Assembly (NCBI RefSeq): GCF_044324785.1
Contig: NZ_CP172127.1
DNA: 64,000 nucleotides
DNA from: Escherichia coli
GTDB taxonomy: Bacteria; Pseudomonadota; Gammaproteobacteria; Enterobacterales; Enterobacteriaceae
Direction: 5' to 3' (one strand)
Both the position numbers and the translations under genes were made by a program. This document shows, one piece after another, positions 30,908 to 43,964 of the stretch. Below the pieces are notes generated by a model. It did not search any database and was not told the origin of the DNA. It saw only the letters and a list, made by a program, of their open reading frames with translations. Positions within the stretch are counted from its first letter, which is position 1. Each line of letters opens with the position of its first letter.

Positions 30908-31001
30908 TTAATTCGTAAAACGTGCTACCGATCACATTAAGAATTCTCAGCATAGTTGAATTTTAGGGACGTAACCTCGGGCGAGCGCCCAGTTCAGCAC
31001 A

Positions 31002-31910
31002 CTAATTCTGCTGTAAAAAGTGCAGAAACTGACTTAAAGCATAAGAAGGCGTTTCGTTATTGCGCCAGAACACACCGACGCTGCCTTTCTGTTCTATCTT
31101 TGGCAGGTTGAGGATCACCAGTTGTCCCTGGCTGGCATAACGTTGCGCCAGGCGTAATGACAAAATAGAGATCATATCGCTGCTTTGTAACAGGTTGGTA
31201 CTGACGTTCATCGACGCCGACTCAATCGTGTTTTCTGGCAGCATCACGCCGTGGTCTACCAGCGCATTATCAATACTGATGCGAATGGGGGTACCTGTCG
31301 GCCAGACTATCCACCGCCAGTTAGCAAGATCATTCCAGCTGAGGGTGGCGTATTTCGCCAGTGGATGCTCAGCACGGGCGACAAAACACACCGGCTCGGT
31401 GTAGAGCACCTTATAATTCAGTGGCAGCTGCAAGGCGCGACCGCCAATTCGCCCAACGACCACGTCGACAGAACCTGCCAATAGATCTTGCAGCAATGGG
31501 GTCATAACCTTCTCTTCAATATTCAGGTGTAGAGTTGGCATCTCCTTGAGCAAATGCAAAATCGCCTGGGATACGCAGTCAGTGGCGACGGGAGAACAGC
31601 CAATTTTCAGACTGCCGACCAGCCCACCTTGTTTAAAACGGGCCAGTTCATGTTGCGAGCGCTCCATGTCATTGATTAACCGCTGGGCATGTTGCAATAA
31701 CAATCTACCGCCTTCGGTAGGGCGTAACCCTTTGCTGTGCCGCTCAAAGAGTGTGAGGCCGATCTCATCTTCGAGTTGTGACAACCATTTCGACAGCGCA
31801 GGCTGGGTGATATTCATCATCCGCGCGACATGGGTCAGATTGCCCTGTTCACCCAGCGCCACCAGCATTTGCAGGTGATGAAGCTTTAGTTTCTGCGCCC
31901 AGTTTGCCAT
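31002..31910 (-). CDS. mhbR: LysR-family regulator of the gentisate cluster
   Basis: ATG at 31910 with SD tggagg gives 303 aa; HTH near the N-terminus; divergent from the catabolic operon. Confidence 0.75.
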   Translation of the reverse strand: MANWAQKLKLHHLQMLVALGEQGNLTHVARMMNITQPALSKWLSQLEDEIGLTLFERHSKGLRPTEGGRLLLQHAQRLINDMERSQHELARFKQGGLVGSLKIGCSPVATDCVSQAILHLLKEMPTLHLNIEEKVMTPLLQDLLAGSVDVVVGRIGGRALQLPLNYKVLYTEPVCFVARAEHPLAKYATLSWNDLANWRWIVWPTGTPIRISIDNALVDHGVMLPENTIESASMNVSTNLLQSSDMISILSLRLAQRYASQGQLVILNLPKIEQKGSVGVFWRNNETPSYALSQFLHFLQQN

Positions 31911-31915
31911 TTGCC

Positions 31916-31931
31916 ATAACCTCCAGGTTAT
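31916..31931. promoter_or_regulatory. Palindrome ATAACC-N4-GGTTAT (LysR-type box) overlapping the mhbR RBS
   Basis: Perfect 6+4+6 inverted repeat in the mhbR/mhbT divergent region. Confidence 0.4.
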
Positions 31932-32036
31932 CTCTCTGCCCGAAATGCCATTGTACATTTCATCTCTTTAATCACAATATCGCAACATACATAAAACAAA
32001 AGAAACATCTACCTTACCTGCACTGAGGCATTTACT

Positions 32037-33395
32037 ATGACTCAACGACGTGATTTACAAGCACTGATCGATGCTGCTCCGGTCGGCAAGATGCAGTGGC
32101 GCGTTATCATCTGCTGTTTTCTGGTGGTAATGCTCGATGGTTTTGACACCGCGGCTATCGGCTTTATCGCCCCTGATATTCGCACTCACTGGCAACTCAC
32201 CGCAGGCGATCTCGCCCCGCTTTTTGGCGCGGGTCTGCTGGGGTTAACCGCAGGCGCACTGCTTTGTGGTCCGTTGTCCGATCGCTTTGGCCGCAAACGT
32301 GTGATTGAGCTGTGCGTCTTTTTGTTTGGCGCGTTAAGCCTCGCCTCGGCTTTCTCACCGGATCTGCAAACGCTGGTATTCCTGCGTTTCCTCACCGGCC
32401 TTGGGCTGGGTGGCGCGATGCCAAACACAATTACCATGACCTCGGAATATCTGCCTGCCCGCCGCCGCGGCGCGCTGGTGACGCTGATGTTTTGCGGCTT
32501 TACCCTGGGTTCGGCGTTTGGCGGGATTGTCAGCGCGCAGCTGGTGCCGGTGATTGGCTGGCACGGGATCCTGGTGTTGGGTGGCGTATTACCGCTGATG
32601 CTGTTTGTTGCACTGCTGGTGGTTCTGCCGGAATCGCCACGCTGGCAGGTGCGCCGCCAGCTACCCCAGGCGGTGATTGCGAAAACCGTCAGCGCCATCA
32701 CCCGCGAGCGTTATGTCGATACCCACTTTTATCTCATTGAATCAGCCTCCGTTACAAAAGGCAGCATTCGTCAACTGTTTATGGGGCGTCAGTTACCCAT
32801 CACGTTGATGCTGTGGGTGGTGTTCTTTATGAGCTTGCTGATTATTTACCTGCTCTCAAGCTGGATGCCAACGCTGCTCAACCATCGCGGCATCGACCTG
32901 CAACATGCCTCCTGGGTTACCGCCGCGTTCCAGATTGGCGGTACGTTGGGCGCGCTGGCGCTGGGCGTGCTGATGGATAAGTTCAATCCTTTCCGCGTAC
33001 TGGCGCTGAGCTATGCCATAGGCGCTGTATGCATCGTGATGATTGGCTTAAGCCAGGACGGATTATGGCTAATGGCGCTGGCGATTTTCGGCACCGGCAT
33101 TGGCATCAGCGGATCGCAGGTGGGGCTGAATGCGCTGACCGCAACACTTTATCCAACACAAAGTCGCGCCACGGGCGTGAGCTGGTCAAACGCCGTGGGC
33201 CGCTGCGGCGCGATTGTTGGCTCGCTGTCTGGCGGCGTGATGATGGCGATGAATTTCTCTTTCGACACCCTGTTTTTCATTATCGCTGTGCCCGCGGCGA
33301 TCAGTGCGGTGATGTTAACCCTGCTGATCACCGTGGTTCGCCAGTCGACCTCTGTCCCTGACTCACTGCCTCACGCAGGTGTTGTGAACGAATAA
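32037..33395 (+). CDS. mhbT: MFS aromatic acid:H+ symporter (3-hydroxybenzoate transporter-like)
   Basis: 452 aa 12-TM MFS protein, first gene of the catabolic operon. Confidence 0.75.
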
Positions 33396-33406
33396 GGAGC
33401 ATCCCA

Positions 33407-34435
33407 ATGACTGATAACAATCAAAATAGCCGCGAGCAATTTTATCAGCATATTTCCGGGCAAAACCTGACCCCGCTGTGGGAGTCACTGCACCATCTGG
33501 TGCCAAAAACGCCCAACGCTAACTGTGCGCCAGCGTACTGGAATTATCAGGAGATCCGCCCGCTGCTGCTGGAGAGCGGCAGCCTGATTGGCGCGAAAGA
33601 AGCCGTGCGCCGCGTGCTGGTGCTGGAAAACCCGGCGCTGCGCGGGCAGTCTTCCATCACCGCGACTTTATATGCCGGTTTGCAACTGATCATGCCGGGC
33701 GAAGTGGCACCGAGTCATCGCCATAACCAGTCGGCGCTGCGTTTTATTGTTGAAGGTAAAGGGGCATTCACCGCCGTTGATGGCGAACGCACGCCAATGA
33801 ATGAGGGCGATTTTATCCTGACCCCGCAGTGGCGCTGGCACGATCACGGTAACCCTGGCGACGAACCGGTTATCTGGCTCGATGGGCTGGATCTGCCATT
33901 AGTGAACACTCTGGGCTGCGGTTTTGCCGAAGATTACCCGGAGGAGCAACAACCAGTAACGCGTAAAGAGGGCGATTACCTGCCGCGTTACGCTGCCAAT
34001 ATGTTGCCGCTGTGCCATCAGACCGGGAACTCCTCGCCCATCTTTAACTACCGTTATGACCGTAGCCGCGAAGTGCTACACGATTTAACCCGCCTGGGCG
34101 ATGCCGATGAGTGGGATGGCTACAAAATGCGCTACGTCAACCCGGTCACCGGTGGCTATCCGATGCCGTCGATGGGCGCTTTCCTGCAACTGCTGCCGAA
34201 AGGGTTTGCCTCACGCGTGGCGCGTACCACTGACAGCACCATCTACCATGTGGTGGAAGGTAGCGGGCAGGTCACTATCGGCAATGAAACCTTCAGCTTT
34301 AGTGCAAAAGATATCTTCGTGGTGCCGACCTGGCACGGCGTGTCGTTCCAGACCACGCAAGATACCGTTTTATTTAGTTTTTCGGACAGACCGGTACAAG
34401 AAGCCCTGGGGCTGTTCCGCGAAGCGCGTTATTAA
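33407..34435 (+). CDS. mhbD: Gentisate 1,2-dioxygenase (bicupin)
   Basis: 342 aa; cupin His motifs ([19 protein letters not shown]). Confidence 0.8.
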
Positions 34436-34450
34436 TTTGGGAGAGAGAAA

Positions 34451-35152
34451 ATGACTCAATACGTATTCGAACCACAAGCGCCCGTTACCGTACCGGTTGT
34501 TGGCAGTGATGAACAATTCCCCGTACGCCGCGTTTACTGCGTCGGACGTAACTATGCCGCCCACGCCCGCGAAATGGGCTTTGATCCGGATCGTGAACCG
34601 CCATTCTTCTTCTGCAAACCGGCGGATGCCGTTGTTCCGGTTGCCGCTGGCGAAACGCTGGCGCTGCCGTATCCGGCGCAGACCGATAACTACCATTATG
34701 AAATTGAACTGGTGGTGGCGATTGGTAAAAAAGGCAGTGATATCCCGCTGGAAAACGCCCATGAATATGTCTGGGGTTATGCCACGGGTCTTGATATGAC
34801 TCGCCGTGACCGTCAAATGGAAATGCGCCAGATGGGCCGCCCGTGGGAAATCGGCAAAGCGTTCGATCTCTCGGCCCCCATCGCGCCGCTGCACAAAGCC
34901 AGCGAAACTGGCGGTATTGATAACGCACCTATCTGGTTACAGGTTAACGGCGAAGATCATCAGCGCAGCGATATTCGTCATCTCATCTGGTCAGTGAATG
35001 AAACCATCAGCTACCTGTCAGGCTTCTTTGAGCTGCAACCGGGCGATCTAATCTTTACCGGTACGCCGGAAGGGGTTGGCCCAGTAGTCAAAGGTGATGT
35101 GATCACGGGCAACGTCGAGGGCTTAACGCCTATCGCGGTGAAGATTGTCTGA
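34451..35152 (+). CDS. mhbH: Fumarylpyruvate hydrolase (FAH family)
   Basis: 233 aa FAH-fold protein. Confidence 0.7.
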
Positions 35153-35804
35153 GGTGATGATGAAGCTGTACAGTTTTTTTAATAGTTCAGCGTCTTACCG
35201 GGTGCGCATTGCGCTGGCGCTGAAGGGTATCGATTACCAGACCGAAGGGGTGAATATCCGCATTGGTCAGCAAAACGAACTGGCCTACCGGCGGATGAAT
35301 CCGGTCGGGCTGGTGCCGACGCTGCTGACCGACGAGGGCGAATCACTCGGACAATCGCTGGCGATTATTGACTGGCTGGAGAGTCACTACCCGCAAGTTC
35401 CGCTGATGCCGCAGGAAGAACCGGCCCGCAACAAGGTGCTGGAAATTGTCTATGCCATCGCCTGCGATATTCATCCATTGAATAACCTACGCGTGCTGCG
35501 CTACCTGACCGAAGAGCTGAACGTCAGTGAAGAAGATAAAAAACGCTGGTATGCGCACTGGATCCAGCAAGGGTTAAGCGCGGTGGAACAGCTACTGCGC
35601 CAGAGCCAGTCGGGGCAATTTTGTGTGGGCGAGACGCCGACGCTGGCAGATTGCTGCCTTGTTCCACAGTGGGCGAACGCGCTACGTATGAACTGCGATC
35701 TGAGCGGGTATCCGCGCTGCAAAGCGGTGTACGACGCCTGCACGCAGCTGCCAGCGTTCATTGCCGCAGCGCCAGAAAATCAACAAGATAAAATTTCAGC
35801 CTGA
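35145..35804 (+). CDS. mhbI: Maleylpyruvate isomerase (GST zeta-like); start codon uncertain (TTG 35145, ATG 35157 or 35160)
   Basis: GST N-terminal thioredoxin fold ([23 protein letters not shown]). Confidence 0.7.
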
Positions 35805-35818
35805 CCAGGAGAACCATA

Positions 35819-37012
35819 ATGACTAAAGTGACACGCGCAGTAATTGTGGGAGGCGGGATCGGCGGTGCGGCAACTGCGTTGTCACTGGCCCGCCAGGGGA
35901 TCAAAGTGGTGCTGCTGGAAAAGGCGCATGAGATCGGTGAGATTGGCGCAGGTATCCAGTTGGGGCCAAATGCGTTTTCGGCGTTGGATAGCCTCGGCGT
36001 CGGCGAAATCGCCCGCCAGCGCGCGGTATTCACCGATCACATCACCATGATGGATGCGGTAAACGCCGAAGAAGTGGTGCGCATTGAAACCGGTCAGGCC
36101 TTTCGCGATCATTTCGGCGGCCCTTACGCGGTGATCCACCGGGTTGATATTCACGCCTCGGTGTGGGAAGCGGTACTGACGCATCCGGACGTGGAATATC
36201 ACACCTCCACCAACGTCGTGGATATTCGCGAGACAGAAGACGATGTCACCGTTTTCGACGATCGCGGCAATAGTTGGATCGGCGATATTCTGATTGGCTG
36301 TGACGGCGTGAAGTCAGTGGTGCGCCAGAGCTTATTGGGCGATGCGCCGCGTGTCACCGGGCATGTGGTCTACCGTGCGGTTATCGATTGTGCCGATATG
36401 CCGGAAGATTTGCGCATTAACGCACCAGTACTGTGGGCGGGGCCGTGCTGTCACTTGGTGCATTACCCTTTACGCGGCGGCAAGCAGTATAACCTGGTGG
36501 TGACATTCCACAGCCGCCAGCAGGAAGAGTGGGGCGTGAAGGATGGCAGTAAAGAGGAAGTGCTCTCTTACTTTGAAGGGATTCACCCCCGTCCGCGCCA
36601 GATGCTGGATAAACCGACCTCCTGGCGACGCTGGTCAACCGCCGACCGTGAACCGGTAGCGAAGTGGGGAACGAAGCGCATTACGCTGGTGGGCGATGCG
36701 GCCCATCCGGTGGCGCAGTATATGGCGCAGGGTGCCTGTATGGCGCTGGAAGACGCGGTAACACTGGGTAAGGCGCTGGCGCAGTGTGAGGGTGATGCGG
36801 CACAAGCCTTTGCGCTGTATGAGTCGGTACGTATTCCGCGCACCGCGCGCATCGTCTGGTCGACCCGTGAAATGGGGCGGGTTTATCATGCCGCAGGAGT
36901 AGAGCGCCAGGTACGTAACCTGTTGTGGAAAGGGAAATCGCAGGCAGAGTTTTACCGCGGCATGGAGTGGCTGTACGGCTGGAAAGAAGATAACTGTTTG
37001 CAACCACGCTGA
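35819..37012 (+). CDS. mhbM: 3-hydroxybenzoate 6-monooxygenase (FAD-dependent aromatic hydroxylase)
   Basis: 397 aa; Rossmann [19 protein letters not shown] and DG..S.VR flavoprotein hydroxylase motifs. Confidence 0.8.
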
Positions 37013-37073
37013 GTACTTTAATCCGTTGACCATAGGCGCTAACATAGCGCCTCATTTTTTTGCGGGTGATGAT

Positions 37074-38069: not shown

Positions 38070-38250
38070 GCCGCACGGTTGTTTGGTGGCGTCAAAATCG
38101 CCGAGGCGTTCCCTGAAGGCCGGGGCAGCCCACATGGATGTGGGCTGAGGGCGCGTTTTACAGGGATAATGAGATGGACGCTCCAGATTTTACGGTATCA
38201 AAGTACCAGACTGGATCGTTGCAATACGTCCTGAAAAATTAGGAGCGTCC
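38070..38250 (+). ncRNA. Candidate structured ncRNA (bridge/guide-RNA-like) in the IS110 left end; speculative
   Basis: Downstream of the promoter-like motif; contains a 9-bp stem hairpin cagcccaca-tgga-tgtgggctg (38126-38147) and an inverted 10-mer. Confidence 0.25.
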
Positions 38251-38252
38251 AC

Positions 38253-39278
38253 ATGAAAGTATCAACTCTTGGTATCGACCTGGCAAAGAACGTTTTTCAG
38301 CTTCATGGTGTCGATCATGAAGGCCATACTATTTTGCGTAAAAAACTCACCCGGGCTAAGTTTGTTCAGTTTGTGATTCAACTGGAACCTTGTCTGATTG
38401 GCATGGAAGCCTGCTCATCCAGTCATTATTTTGCGCGATTATTCACCCGCTATGGTCATGAGGTAAAACTCATACCTCCGCAGTATGTGAAGCCTTATGT
38501 GAAAACGAACAAGACGGATGCAGCAGATGCTGAAGCAATCTGCGAAGCGGTAACCCGTCCGAATATGCGTTTTGTTCAGATAAAAACCGAAGAGCAGCAG
38601 GCCGTTTTAGCGTTACACACTGAACGGGGAATACTTATCCGTGAGCGGATTGCCTGTGCCAATAGTTTAAGAGCCACACTTGCTGAGTTTGGTATTACGA
38701 TTGCGGCCGGACAAAGCCATTTAACCCGTGAGCTGCCAGCCATTCTGGAGGATGGCGAAAATGGTTTATCTCCCTTTGTCAGAACCAGCATCTACAGACA
38801 GTCTAAACATATCCGGGAACTTGAAGAACAAGTTAAACAGGTAGAAGAAGCTCTGGCCTCCTGGTATAGAACGCAGGAAGCCTGCCAGAGAATGGCCAAA
38901 ATCCCGGGGGTTGGCATGCTAACGGCCACTTATGTGGTAGCAGCAGTGGGTAATGCCCGACAATTCAGTACCGCAAAGCAGTTCGCTTCATGGCTGGGGC
39001 TGACACCAAAGGAACATTCCAGCGGCGGGAAACAGCAACTGGGAGGGATCAGCAAACGTGGAGATGGATATTTCCGATACCTGCTGGTTCACGGCGCACG
39101 CGCACTTACCGCCTGGGTCAACCGAAACGGCGCGGTTGAGGAGAATTCCTGGCTTCAGGGACTCCTTGAGCGGAAGCACTACAATGTAGCTGTTGTCGCC
39201 ATGGCGGCAAAAACAGCGAGGATCATGTGGTCAATGTTGTCACACAATACTGAATATCAACCTCGGCAGCTCGCCTGA
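38253..39278 (+). CDS. IS110-family transposase/recombinase (DEDD RuvC-like N-domain plus C-terminal Tnp domain)
   Basis: 341 aa; N-terminal LGIDLAKN, GMEACSS, TDAADAEA motifs; C-terminal GLTPKEHSSGGK...GISKRGDGYFR; SD aggag. Confidence 0.85.
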   Translation: MKVSTLGIDLAKNVFQLHGVDHEGHTILRKKLTRAKFVQFVIQLEPCLIGMEACSSSHYFARLFTRYGHEVKLIPPQYVKPYVKTNKTDAADAEAICEAVTRPNMRFVQIKTEEQQAVLALHTERGILIRERIACANSLRATLAEFGITIAAGQSHLTRELPAILEDGENGLSPFVRTSIYRQSKHIRELEEQVKQVEEALASWYRTQEACQRMAKIPGVGMLTATYVVAAVGNARQFSTAKQFASWLGLTPKEHSSGGKQQLGGISKRGDGYFRYLLVHGARALTAWVNRNGAVEENSWLQGLLERKHYNVAVVAMAAKTARIMWSMLSHNTEYQPRQLA

Positions 39279-39638
39279 CACAAGGTCAGTCAATCTGACG
39301 AGGTGCTGAAAAAAAGTTAACGTCCTGGTAGGTGCAGGTGACTTCAGAAGATGGCAAAACAGGTAAGACCGCAGGCAGGATACACCGAGAGGTAACAAGG
39401 GCAAGTTAGCCCGTAGAGGATGATTGGTACCTGCCTGGCGGATTTCATCATGGTTCGGGATAAAAATCCCATCAGAAACCGGATATATGGCTGCACCTAC
39501 CCGTTTTATTACATAACTGAAGAAAGCATTGCATTCCGGGAGCGTCCATATATGTTACCTCGCGCCCGACCCGGTAGCCGTAAGGGATAAGCCGAGGGCA
39601 CCGCGCAGCGGCGATTTTGTTCGCCAGAGCCCGGGGGT

Positions 39639-39670: not shown

Positions 39671-39779
39671 GCGCTCCTTGCGCCAGTGATTATATGAAGC
39701 AATGCACATGACAGGAGCGCAACAGGATGAGAGACTGAAATATTCTCGTTATTTTCGGATCTGATGACATTAATTAATT

Positions 39780-39863
39780 TTAAAATATCATCTTAAATAC
39801 GCCAGTCACCACCAGTAGCCCAATCAGGAAAATAATCAATACAGCCCAGAGTATAATTTTCAT
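39780..39863 (-). CDS. yohP: Small (27 aa) single-TM membrane protein
   Basis: Hand translation of the minus strand: MKIILWAVLIIFLIGLLVVTGVFKMIF-stop; below the 60-aa ORF-track cutoff; matches my recollection of K-12 YohP. Confidence 0.75.
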   Translation of the reverse strand: MKIILWAVLIIFLIGLLVVTGVFKMIF

Positions 39864-40086
39864 TGGCGTTCCTTTATTTGTGAGTGCTGAATAAGTATAG
39901 GAAAAAACGAAGTCCTTTGCCGTTATCCATAAACGATTAAGATAAATCGGAAGATATCATTCACTTAGTGTATATTTTTCTGGATATGTCATATTATTGC
40001 CACTGATGTTTTGCCACGCGAAACTAAAAAATATATCGCAACACACGGTAATCTCCGCGCACCTTTTCTTACCTGATTATTCCCCC

Positions 40087-41523
40087 ATGAATCGTGATTC
40101 CTTTTATCCCGCCATCGCCTGTTTTCCGCTGTTACTGATGCTGGCCGGGTGTGCGCCTATGCATGAAACCCGCCAGGCGTTAAGCCAGCAAACGCCTGCT
40201 GCACAAGTTGACACCGCATTACCCACGGCGCTGAAAAATGGTTGGCCAGACAGCCAATGGTGGCTGGAGTATCACGATAATCAGCTCACTTCCTTAATTA
40301 ACAATGCACTACAGAACGCACCGGATATGCAGGTGGCTGAACAGCGCATTCAGCTAGCTGAAGCCCAGGCGAAGGCAGTTGCTACTCAGGATGGTCCGCA
40401 GATCGACTTTTCTGCGGATATGGAGCGGCAAAAAATGTCGGCAGAAGGGTTAATGGGGCCGTTTGCTCTGAACGATCCTGCCGCAGGTACGACCGGTCCG
40501 TGGTACACCAACGGTACTTTTGGCTTAACGGCGGGCTGGCATCTCGATATCTGGGGAAAGAATCGGGCGGAGGTAACTGCTCGCCTGGGTACGGTTAAAG
40601 CACGAGCGGCGGAACGCGAGCAAACCCGCCAATTGCTGGCTGGCAGCGTAGCCCGCCTGTACTGGGAGTGGCAAACCCAGGCGGCGTTAAACACTGTCTT
40701 ACAGCAAATCGAAAAAGAGCAGAACACCATTATCGCCACCGATCGCCAGCTATATCAGAACGGGATTACTTCTTCAGTTGAAGGTGTGGAAACCGATATT
40801 AATGCCAGCAAAACCCGGCAGCAGCTCAACGATGTCGCGGGGAAAATGAAAATTATTGAGGCACGGTTAAGCGCACTTACAAATCACCAGACAAAGTCAC
40901 TGAAGCTTAAACCGGTCGCGTTGCCGAAAGTGGCAAGCCAGCTTCCTGATGAACTGGGGTACTCCTTACTGGCGCGGCGGGCAGATTTGCAGGCGGCGCA
41001 CTGGTACGTTGAGTCATCGTTAAGCACCATTGATGCGGCAAAAGCGGCATTTTATCCTGACATCAACCTGATGGCCTTCCTGCAACAGGATGCGTTGCAC
41101 TTAAGCGATCTGTTCCGTCATTCCGCGCAGCAAATGGGCGTTACGGCAGGCCTGACGCTACCCATTTTCGATAGTGGTCGTCTTAACGCCAATCTCGATA
41201 TCGCAAAAGCCGAAAGCAACTTGTCTATCGCCAGCTACAACAAAGCGGTGGTTGAAGCGGTGAATGACGTGGCGCGGGCAGCCAGTCAGGTTCAGACACT
41301 GGCGGAGAAAAACCAGCATCAGGCGCAAATTGAGCGCGATGCCTTGCGTGTAGTTGGTCTTGCGCAGGCGCGCTTTAACGCGGGCATCATTGCCGGTTCC
41401 CGCGTCAGCGAAGCCAGAATCCCGGCGCTTCGCGAGCGGGCCAATGGCCTGTTATTGCAAGGGCAGTGGCTGGATGCCTCCATTCAACTCACTGGTGCGT
41501 TGGGCGGGGGTTACAAACGCTGA
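40087..41523 (+). CDS. mdtQ: Outer-membrane efflux lipoprotein (OMF/NodT family), apparently intact
   Basis: ATG at 40087 gives 478 aa with lipobox LLMLAGC; uninterrupted frame. Confidence 0.8.
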   Translation: MNRDSFYPAIACFPLLLMLAGCAPMHETRQALSQQTPAAQVDTALPTALKNGWPDSQWWLEYHDNQLTSLINNALQNAPDMQVAEQRIQLAEAQAKAVATQDGPQIDFSADMERQKMSAEGLMGPFALNDPAAGTTGPWYTNGTFGLTAGWHLDIWGKNRAEVTARLGTVKARAAEREQTRQLLAGSVARLYWEWQTQAALNTVLQQIEKEQNTIIATDRQLYQNGITSSVEGVETDINASKTRQQLNDVAGKMKIIEARLSALTNHQTKSLKLKPVALPKVASQLPDELGYSLLARRADLQAAHWYVESSLSTIDAAKAAFYPDINLMAFLQQDALHLSDLFRHSAQQMGVTAGLTLPIFDSGRLNANLDIAKAESNLSIASYNKAVVEAVNDVARAASQVQTLAEKNQHQAQIERDALRVVGLAQARFNAGIIAGSRVSEARIPALRERANGLLLQGQWLDASIQLTGALGGGYKR

Positions 41524-41575
41524 TGATATGCGCCTTCTATACTTAACGTTTATTCAGCGTTAAGTGGAGAACTCG

Positions 41576-42337
41576 ATGGCACAGGTTGCGATTATTACCG
41601 CCTCCGATTCGGGGATCGGCAAAGAGTGCGCGTTATTACTGGCGCAGCAGGGGTTTGATATTGGTATTACCTGGCACTCAGATGAAGAAGGGGCAAAAGA
41701 TACCGCGCGTGAGGTAGTTAGCCACGGCGTACGTGCGGAGATCGTGCAACTGGATCTCGGCAATCTACCAGAAGGTGCGCAGGCGCTGGAGAAACTGATT
41801 CAACGGCTGGGGCGTATTGATGTGCTGGTGAATAATGCGGGTGCAATGACCAAAGCGCCGTTTCTTGATATGGCTTTTGATGAGTGGCGCAAGATTTTTA
41901 CCGTTGATGTCGACGGTGCATTCTTATGCTCGCAAATTGCGGCCCGCCAGATGGTGAAACAAGGGCAGGGCGGTCGCATCATCAACATTACGTCGGTACA
42001 TGAACATACGCCGCTGCCGGATGCCAGCGCCTACACAGCCGCTAAACATGCGCTCGGCGGGTTAACCAAAGCGATGGCGCTGGAGCTGGTCAGGCATAAG
42101 ATTTTGGTGAATGCGGTTGCACCTGGGGCGATCGCCACGCCAATGAACGGCATGGATGATGGCGACGTGAAGCCCGGCGCGGAGCCTTCGATTCCTCTGA
42201 GGCGTTTTGGCGCAACGCATGAGATTGCCAGCCTGGTAGCGTGGCTGTGCTCAGAGGGCGCAAATTACACCACCGGGCAGTCGTTGATAGTGGATGGCGG
42301 CTTTATGTTGGCGAATCCGCAGTTCAACCCAGAATAG
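41576..42337 (+). CDS. yohF: Short-chain dehydrogenase/reductase
   Basis: 253 aa from ATG at 41576 (SD gtggaga); TASDSGIGK cofactor motif and YTAAK catalytic motif. Confidence 0.88.
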   Translation: MAQVAIITASDSGIGKECALLLAQQGFDIGITWHSDEEGAKDTAREVVSHGVRAEIVQLDLGNLPEGAQALEKLIQRLGRIDVLVNNAGAMTKAPFLDMAFDEWRKIFTVDVDGAFLCSQIAARQMVKQGQGGRIINITSVHEHTPLPDASAYTAAKHALGGLTKAMALELVRHKILVNAVAPGAIATPMNGMDDGDVKPGAEPSIPLRRFGATHEIASLVAWLCSEGANYTTGQSLIVDGGFMLANPQFNPE

Positions 42338-43836: not shown

Positions 43837-43964
43837 GCATTTCCTCACGATTCTCCTTTGACGATCGCACTTTTTGCTCGTTATGATGGCGTCGCTAGCC
43901 TCAGTAAATCCTTACTCCGGCGGTGCGCAACCTGTGCGCGTGAACCACTATCTGAATGCTCATC

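Follow-up and report, generated by a model that had tools for sequence, protein, structure and literature searches.

Escherichia coli mdtQ is intact as the species norm and carries a one-nucleotide frameshift in K-12

Among the exit ducts that serve the Escherichia coli pumps, TolC is considered the dominant one (PMC5615136), and besides it this bacterium has three further outer-membrane factors (OMFs), CusC, MdtP and MdtQ, according to a 2025 review (PMC11762307). The same review counts mdtQ as part of the E. coli core genome, even though the gene is annotated as a pseudogene, and states that its promoter lacks experimental confirmation and that the role of the protein has yet to be elucidated (PMC11762307). 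In this work we analyzed a 64,000-nucleotide stretch of E. coli DNA, hereafter the window, in which mdtQ occupies a single uninterrupted frame; the locus raises the question of whether this copy is sound, whether its presence distinguishes the strain, and what an intact MdtQ may do.

According to the ORF listing of the window, mdtQ lies in a stop-to-stop open frame of the plus strand (39997 to 41523), and from an ATG at 40087 to the TGA at 41521-41523 it encodes a product of 478 residues; the initial annotation, which had described an intact gene in one frame with these limits and this length, was correct on both counts. Given that its length is far above chance and that it matches curated models from end to end, the 478-codon frame is considered real. 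The N-terminus, MNRDSFYPAIACFPLLLMLAGC, carries a basic residue (Arg3), then a hydrophobic stretch, and then a lipobox, L-A-G-C at residues 19-22, identified with the expression [LVI][ASTVI][GAS]C; the lipoprotein signal noticed previously was therefore recovered, with Cys22 as the predicted lipidation site (Table 1), and the residue at position +2 after this Cys is Ala. In some public records a TTG at 39997 is chosen as the start, and the resulting protein has 508 residues. This start is unlikely, because the signal peptide would sit 30 residues inside the protein; as RefSeq also uses the ATG at 40087, the latter is the credible start.

Table 1. Coordinates of the mdtQ region and of the genes of the upstream island in the window
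Feature	Position	Strand	Evidence
mdtQ (formerly yohG/yohH), CDS, intact	40087..41523	+	ORF list, NCBIfam, Pfam, E. coli genome comparison
MdtQ lipoprotein signal peptide (residues 1-21) and lipidation Cys22, predicted; Cys22 codon 40150-40152	40087..40152	+	lipobox regular expression
A5 run, site of the K-12 lesion (A4 in K-12); gene nt 148-152, codons K50-N51	40234..40238	+	pairwise alignment, three-frame translation
yohP-mdtQ spacer, 223 nt; putative mdtQ promoter and 5' UTR	39864..40086	+	eight-strain alignment
yohP, small membrane protein gene, divergent from mdtQ; ATG at 39861-39863	39780..39863	-	RefSeq annotation of aligned loci
yohF, SDR-family oxidoreductase	41576..42337	+	Pfam adh_short, adh_short_C2; RefSeq annotation of aligned loci
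LysR-type regulator (island gene)	within 30944..37015	-	
Aromatic-acid MFS transporter (island gene)	within 30944..37015		
FAH-family hydrolase (island gene)	within 30944..37015		
Gentisate 1,2-dioxygenase (island gene)	within 30944..37015		598.6 bits
Maleylacetoacetate-type isomerase (island gene)	within 30944..37015		308.6 bits
3-Hydroxybenzoate 6-monooxygenase (island gene)	within 30944..37015		755.8 bits

The family to which MdtQ belongs is settled by a full-length equivalog match together with a published AlphaFold comparison. With the MdtQ equivalog model NF008524 of NCBIfam the score was 1025.6 bits, all 478 residues being aligned with all 478 profile positions (cut-off 650 bits), and with the NodT subfamily model TIGR01845 it was 274.1 bits (residues 16-475 on positions 4-460 of 460; cut-off 210.05 bits). 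Both models bear out the earlier proposal of an outer-membrane channel of the NodT/OMF family, and the predicted N-terminal lipoprotein signal with its lipobox Cys is a trait of the NodT/OMF lipoprotein subfamily as well. The two repeats of Pfam PF02321 (OEP) were found as tandem stretches, with an overall score of 106.6 bits (cut-off 22). The related models were matched below their cut-offs: the MdtP-family model gave 356 bits over residues 17-477 (MdtP equivalog cut-off 597), the CusC-type model 97 bits, and the TolC-type model TIGR01844 53.8 bits (cut-off 225.15). Identification of the gene as mdtP is accordingly rejected, MdtP, the outer-membrane subunit of MdtNOP in E. coli, being the closest paralogue family; membership in the TolC subfamily is rejected too, the relation to TolC being one of fold only. 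TolC shares 12% sequence identity with MdtQ (PMC11762307) and is not lipidated, in contrast to the lipobox-bearing MdtQ; MdtQ and MdtP, both of the NodT type, are counted by a preprint among the OMFs of E. coli that are N-acylated (bioRxiv 10.1101/2025.03.19.644130). Among solved structures the best match was VceC (1yc9, E 1.5e-39, residues 51-477), followed by OprM, SilC, CmeC, CusC, OprN, MtrE and OprJ; every one of these structures belongs to an outer-membrane exit duct of a tripartite exporter. VceC, from Vibrio cholerae, is an exit duct as in the family of MdtQ, yet it is a distant homologue from another genus.

In MG1655 (NC_000913.3) the orthologous locus, b2139, spans 1436 nt (2227323-2228758) and is annotated as a pseudogene, formerly split as yohG and yohH. 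Its pairwise alignment with the window gene gave 98.1% DNA identity, with 26 substitutions and one gap, and the gap places the lesion: one A is missing from the A5 run, so that K-12 reads CTG AAA ATG G where the window reads CTG AAA AAT GG. In K-12 the reading frame is lost after K50 and a stop follows at codon 70, with the rest of the gene in another frame; the statement of the initial annotation that mdtQ is interrupted in K-12 is thus upheld, and the comparison proposed along with it, an alignment with K-12, leaves no intact frame there. This lesion parts the signal peptide and the lipobox from the channel body, and the product would in consequence be unable to reach the outer membrane. When the missing A is restored, the K-12 protein differs from that of the window at a single residue (H267N). 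As no further damage has accumulated, the frameshift looks recent.

The distribution of both alleles was examined in the complete E. coli genomes. The gene was matched in 5420 of 5426, at 97-99% identity to annotated mdtQ, and at least 80% of it is present in 5390, with 95-99% identity or higher. A 68-mer carrying the intact A5 run was found exactly in 4582 genomes, and the corresponding 67-mer of the K-12 A4 allele in 355; the 40 of these 355 that were listed all look, by name and source, like K-12 laboratory strains or derivatives (MG1655, C600, J53, DH5alpha, HST04 and NEB 5-alpha are among them). Six non-K-12 genomes were sampled (WP4-S18-ESBL-07, EDL933, 372_BP0083, EC21Z-144, PF9285 and GPEC1035), and each one has a 1437-nt intact mdtQ CDS with a protein accession and no internal stops on translation. 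The MdtQ of E. coli O157:H7 and of other non-K-12 E. coli (UniProt Q8X659; EDL933 WP_001078131.1) also has 478 residues, and the EDL933 protein differs from that of the window at two of them (S262I and K273T), with 27 synonymous sites; the gene shares its chromosomal position (yohP-mdtQ-yohF-yohD-yohC) with that of the window, and there is no substantive difference between them. Intact mdtQ is the species norm of E. coli, and the broken copy of K-12 is the exception. The window gene is very probably an ordinary wild-type allele of this chromosomal core gene, and the observation that it is intact is correct but ordinary, being already known and in print. The statement that the strain possesses an extra outer-membrane factor holds relative to K-12 only; it fails as a trait of the strain, since nearly all the complete genomes carry the gene. 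Natural losses do occur: in STEC379 only the 3' 40% of mdtQ is left, adjoining IS1, as an IS1-associated 5' deletion, and truncations are present in some isolates of Salmonella Typhi and Paratyphi A (PMC9241588). In view of these losses, and given that K-12 lives without it, mdtQ is dispensable.

The locus is collinear with K-12 (yohC-yohD-yohF-mdtQ-yohP-dusC) and with WP4-S18-ESBL-07 apart from two upstream insertions, and mdtQ has its orthologous place on the chromosome, flanked by yohP/dusC on one side and yohF on the other. One insertion is a 6-kb island between yohJ and dusC, absent from K-12 and from WP4-S18-ESBL-07, whose genes (Table 1) encode a 3-hydroxybenzoate/gentisate pathway; related copies are present in a minority of the complete E. 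coli genomes, and 498 genomes hold at least 80% of the 22-kb segment from 28000 to 50000. Over most of this segment the closest complete E. coli genomes among the matches listed are about 98.7% identical, and for mdtQ alone 99% identity is reached by only six genomes, so it seems that the source lineage is poorly represented among the complete RefSeq genomes of E. coli, or that the segment is a recombination mosaic. The other insertion is an IS110-family element of 1384 bp (38168-39551) between dusC and yohP, present as one copy only in the window. Its transposase gene (38253-39278, plus strand) encodes 341 residues (NF033542, 359 bits) and is followed on its 3' side by a long non-coding part of about 270 nt; the dinucleotide AT stands at both ends of the element, and other strains show one AT only at the empty site. 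Calculated from offsets in the literature, the insertion lies within the TRIP1c repeat described between yohI (dusC) and yohG (PMC10888264). Two assemblies with an identical MdtQ protein have unrelated genes instead of dusC upstream of yohP-mdtQ. The first carries rlmG and a ygjP-like gene there, and the second nikR with a nik-type ABC transporter. Such junctions would be consistent with TRIP1-mediated rearrangements, which are on record for this site (PMC10888264), or with assembly joins at the repeat. On the other side of mdtQ, a Peptidase-S11 RNA motif (RF03039), a known cis-regulatory motif, scored 73.1 bits (gathering score 34.8) on the plus strand at 43880-43960, where it is flanked by yohC and by the expected location of pbpG; at gathering thresholds, the Rfam scan had no hits within the IS element or around mdtQ.

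Conservation of the frame was analyzed at the level of substitutions. The exact MdtQ protein of the window is found on at least 957 public contigs, under the NCBI name MdtQ, and six genomes with the identical protein differ from the window gene at 24-26 nucleotides, all of them necessarily synonymous. Mean dN/dS across eight mdtQ alleles was 0.068, and the changes between the window gene and the frame-repaired K-12 gene are 25 synonymous and one non-synonymous. Judged from these alleles, mdtQ is under strong purifying selection in the species, and the dN/dS of about 0.07 argues that some function exists.

A lesion that does not produce a stop, whether missense or regulatory, could make the window copy as non-functional as that of K-12. 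This lesion was searched for by exact look-up of the protein, by comparison with six intact alleles and by alignment of the 600 nt upstream in eight strains, and none was found, which answers the reservation of the initial annotation. The yohP-mdtQ spacer has no indels in the eight strains. Two features are in favor of such a lesion: one spacer substitution, about 160 nt ahead of the ATG, that is private to the window and absent from the seven compared strains, and the IS110-family element 536 nt upstream. Against these stand the 84 nt that adjoin the ATG, in which the eight strains do not differ, the location of the IS on the far side of yohP and the presence of an IS with the same flanks in about 175 of the 5426 complete genomes. 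An effect of the element on mdtQ was judged unlikely. As the protein is also identical, residue for residue, to the one on the contigs mentioned above, and is matched end to end by the equivalog model, a hidden lesion is very improbable.

If the gene is functional, the established biology of OMF lipoproteins suggests how its product would work. The precursor would leave the cytoplasm through Sec, acquire its lipid at Cys22 and be processed by signal peptidase II, and, given that the residue at +2 is Ala and not Asp, the Lol pathway would sort it to the outer membrane. There MdtQ would assemble as a trimer resembling TolC, its beta-barrel set in the membrane and its alpha-helical tunnel reaching into the periplasm, and this duct would dock on an inner-membrane pump and its periplasmic adaptor, acting as their exit. 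The closest relatives of MdtQ are MdtP (mdtNOP) and the Vibrio VceC (VceCAB), both of which belong to systems built on non-RND pumps, and this is a weak hint that the partner may be a non-RND pump, of the MFS or EmrAB type. VceC is encoded together with its VceAB pump. The mdtP gene shares an operon with the genes of its pump and adaptor, whereas mdtQ is solitary (PMC11762307); in its neighbourhood in the window, no gene was found for a pump or an adaptor that could be its cognate partner in a tripartite efflux system. Our tentative reading, which we regard as possible, is that wild E. coli keeps MdtQ under strong purifying selection as the working exit duct of a probably non-RND exporter, and that efflux genetics based on K-12, itself naturally null for mdtQ, has missed this function.

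The control region bears on a different view, namely that mdtQ is cryptic, its frame being kept and its expression being too weak under ordinary conditions to add to efflux. No Shine-Dalgarno-like purine run is present directly before the ATG in ttattcccccATG, and the promoter scan gave no sigma-70-like site in the yohP-mdtQ spacer, with a total of sites not above the shuffled expectation. The one plus-strand promoter-like site, at 39764-39791, was rejected; it lies about 300 nt upstream of mdtQ, overlaps the 3' end of yohP, and has its -35 hexamer within 12 nt that EDL933-type strains lack. Based on these features of the region before the ATG, mdtQ may be weakly expressed or silent in culture. 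On its 3' side, 52 nt (41524-41575) separate the mdtQ stop from the start of yohF on the same strand, and as the terminator scan found no terminator-like hairpin between them, both genes may be co-transcribed; mdtQ has been described as independently encoded (PMC11762307). The unconfirmed promoter and unelucidated function reported in the review, as well as the tolerated losses in K-12 and in sporadic natural strains, agree with a cryptic gene. Nonetheless, a dN/dS of this order and identical proteins across so many synonymous differences are hard to square with a complete lack of expression, the orthologue of Klebsiella pneumoniae, YohG (479 aa), is listed among the outer-membrane proteins identified by proteomics of ST258 (PMC4404324), and a weak consensus scan could miss an activator-dependent promoter or one read by an alternative sigma factor. 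We consider it doubtful that mdtQ is cryptic.

The gene name raises a further alternative. [quoted passage not shown] It could be that "multidrug resistance" is a misnomer and that MdtQ exports other cargo, such as a metabolite, a siderophore or a peptide, or that it is a structural lipoprotein of the outer membrane; as an orphan without an adjacent pump, the gene agrees with this view. The mdtQ null mutants of Sulavik et al. 2001 were reportedly made in K-12. If so, mdtQ was already frameshifted in the parent, the evidence for the name is weakened, and the phenotype would need another cause, for instance polarity on neighbouring genes or measurement noise. On the other hand, the close relatives with solved structures are without exception ducts of tripartite exporters, the family models are specific for the outer-membrane subunits of efflux transporters, and an exporter of other cargo would differ from the exit duct proposed above in cargo alone, the mechanism being the same. 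We regard the misnomer as unlikely.

For the window itself these results are of little consequence, given that its gene is the standard E. coli allele. If MdtQ is indeed the exit duct of an exporter in wild E. coli and the mutants were derived from K-12, the cited susceptibility shifts of mdtQ null strains would need re-examination. Work done in K-12 on outer-membrane factors leaves MdtQ out, and since K-12 is without an intact mdtQ, the function of this protein is best studied in a strain whose allele is intact, for instance the source strain of the window.
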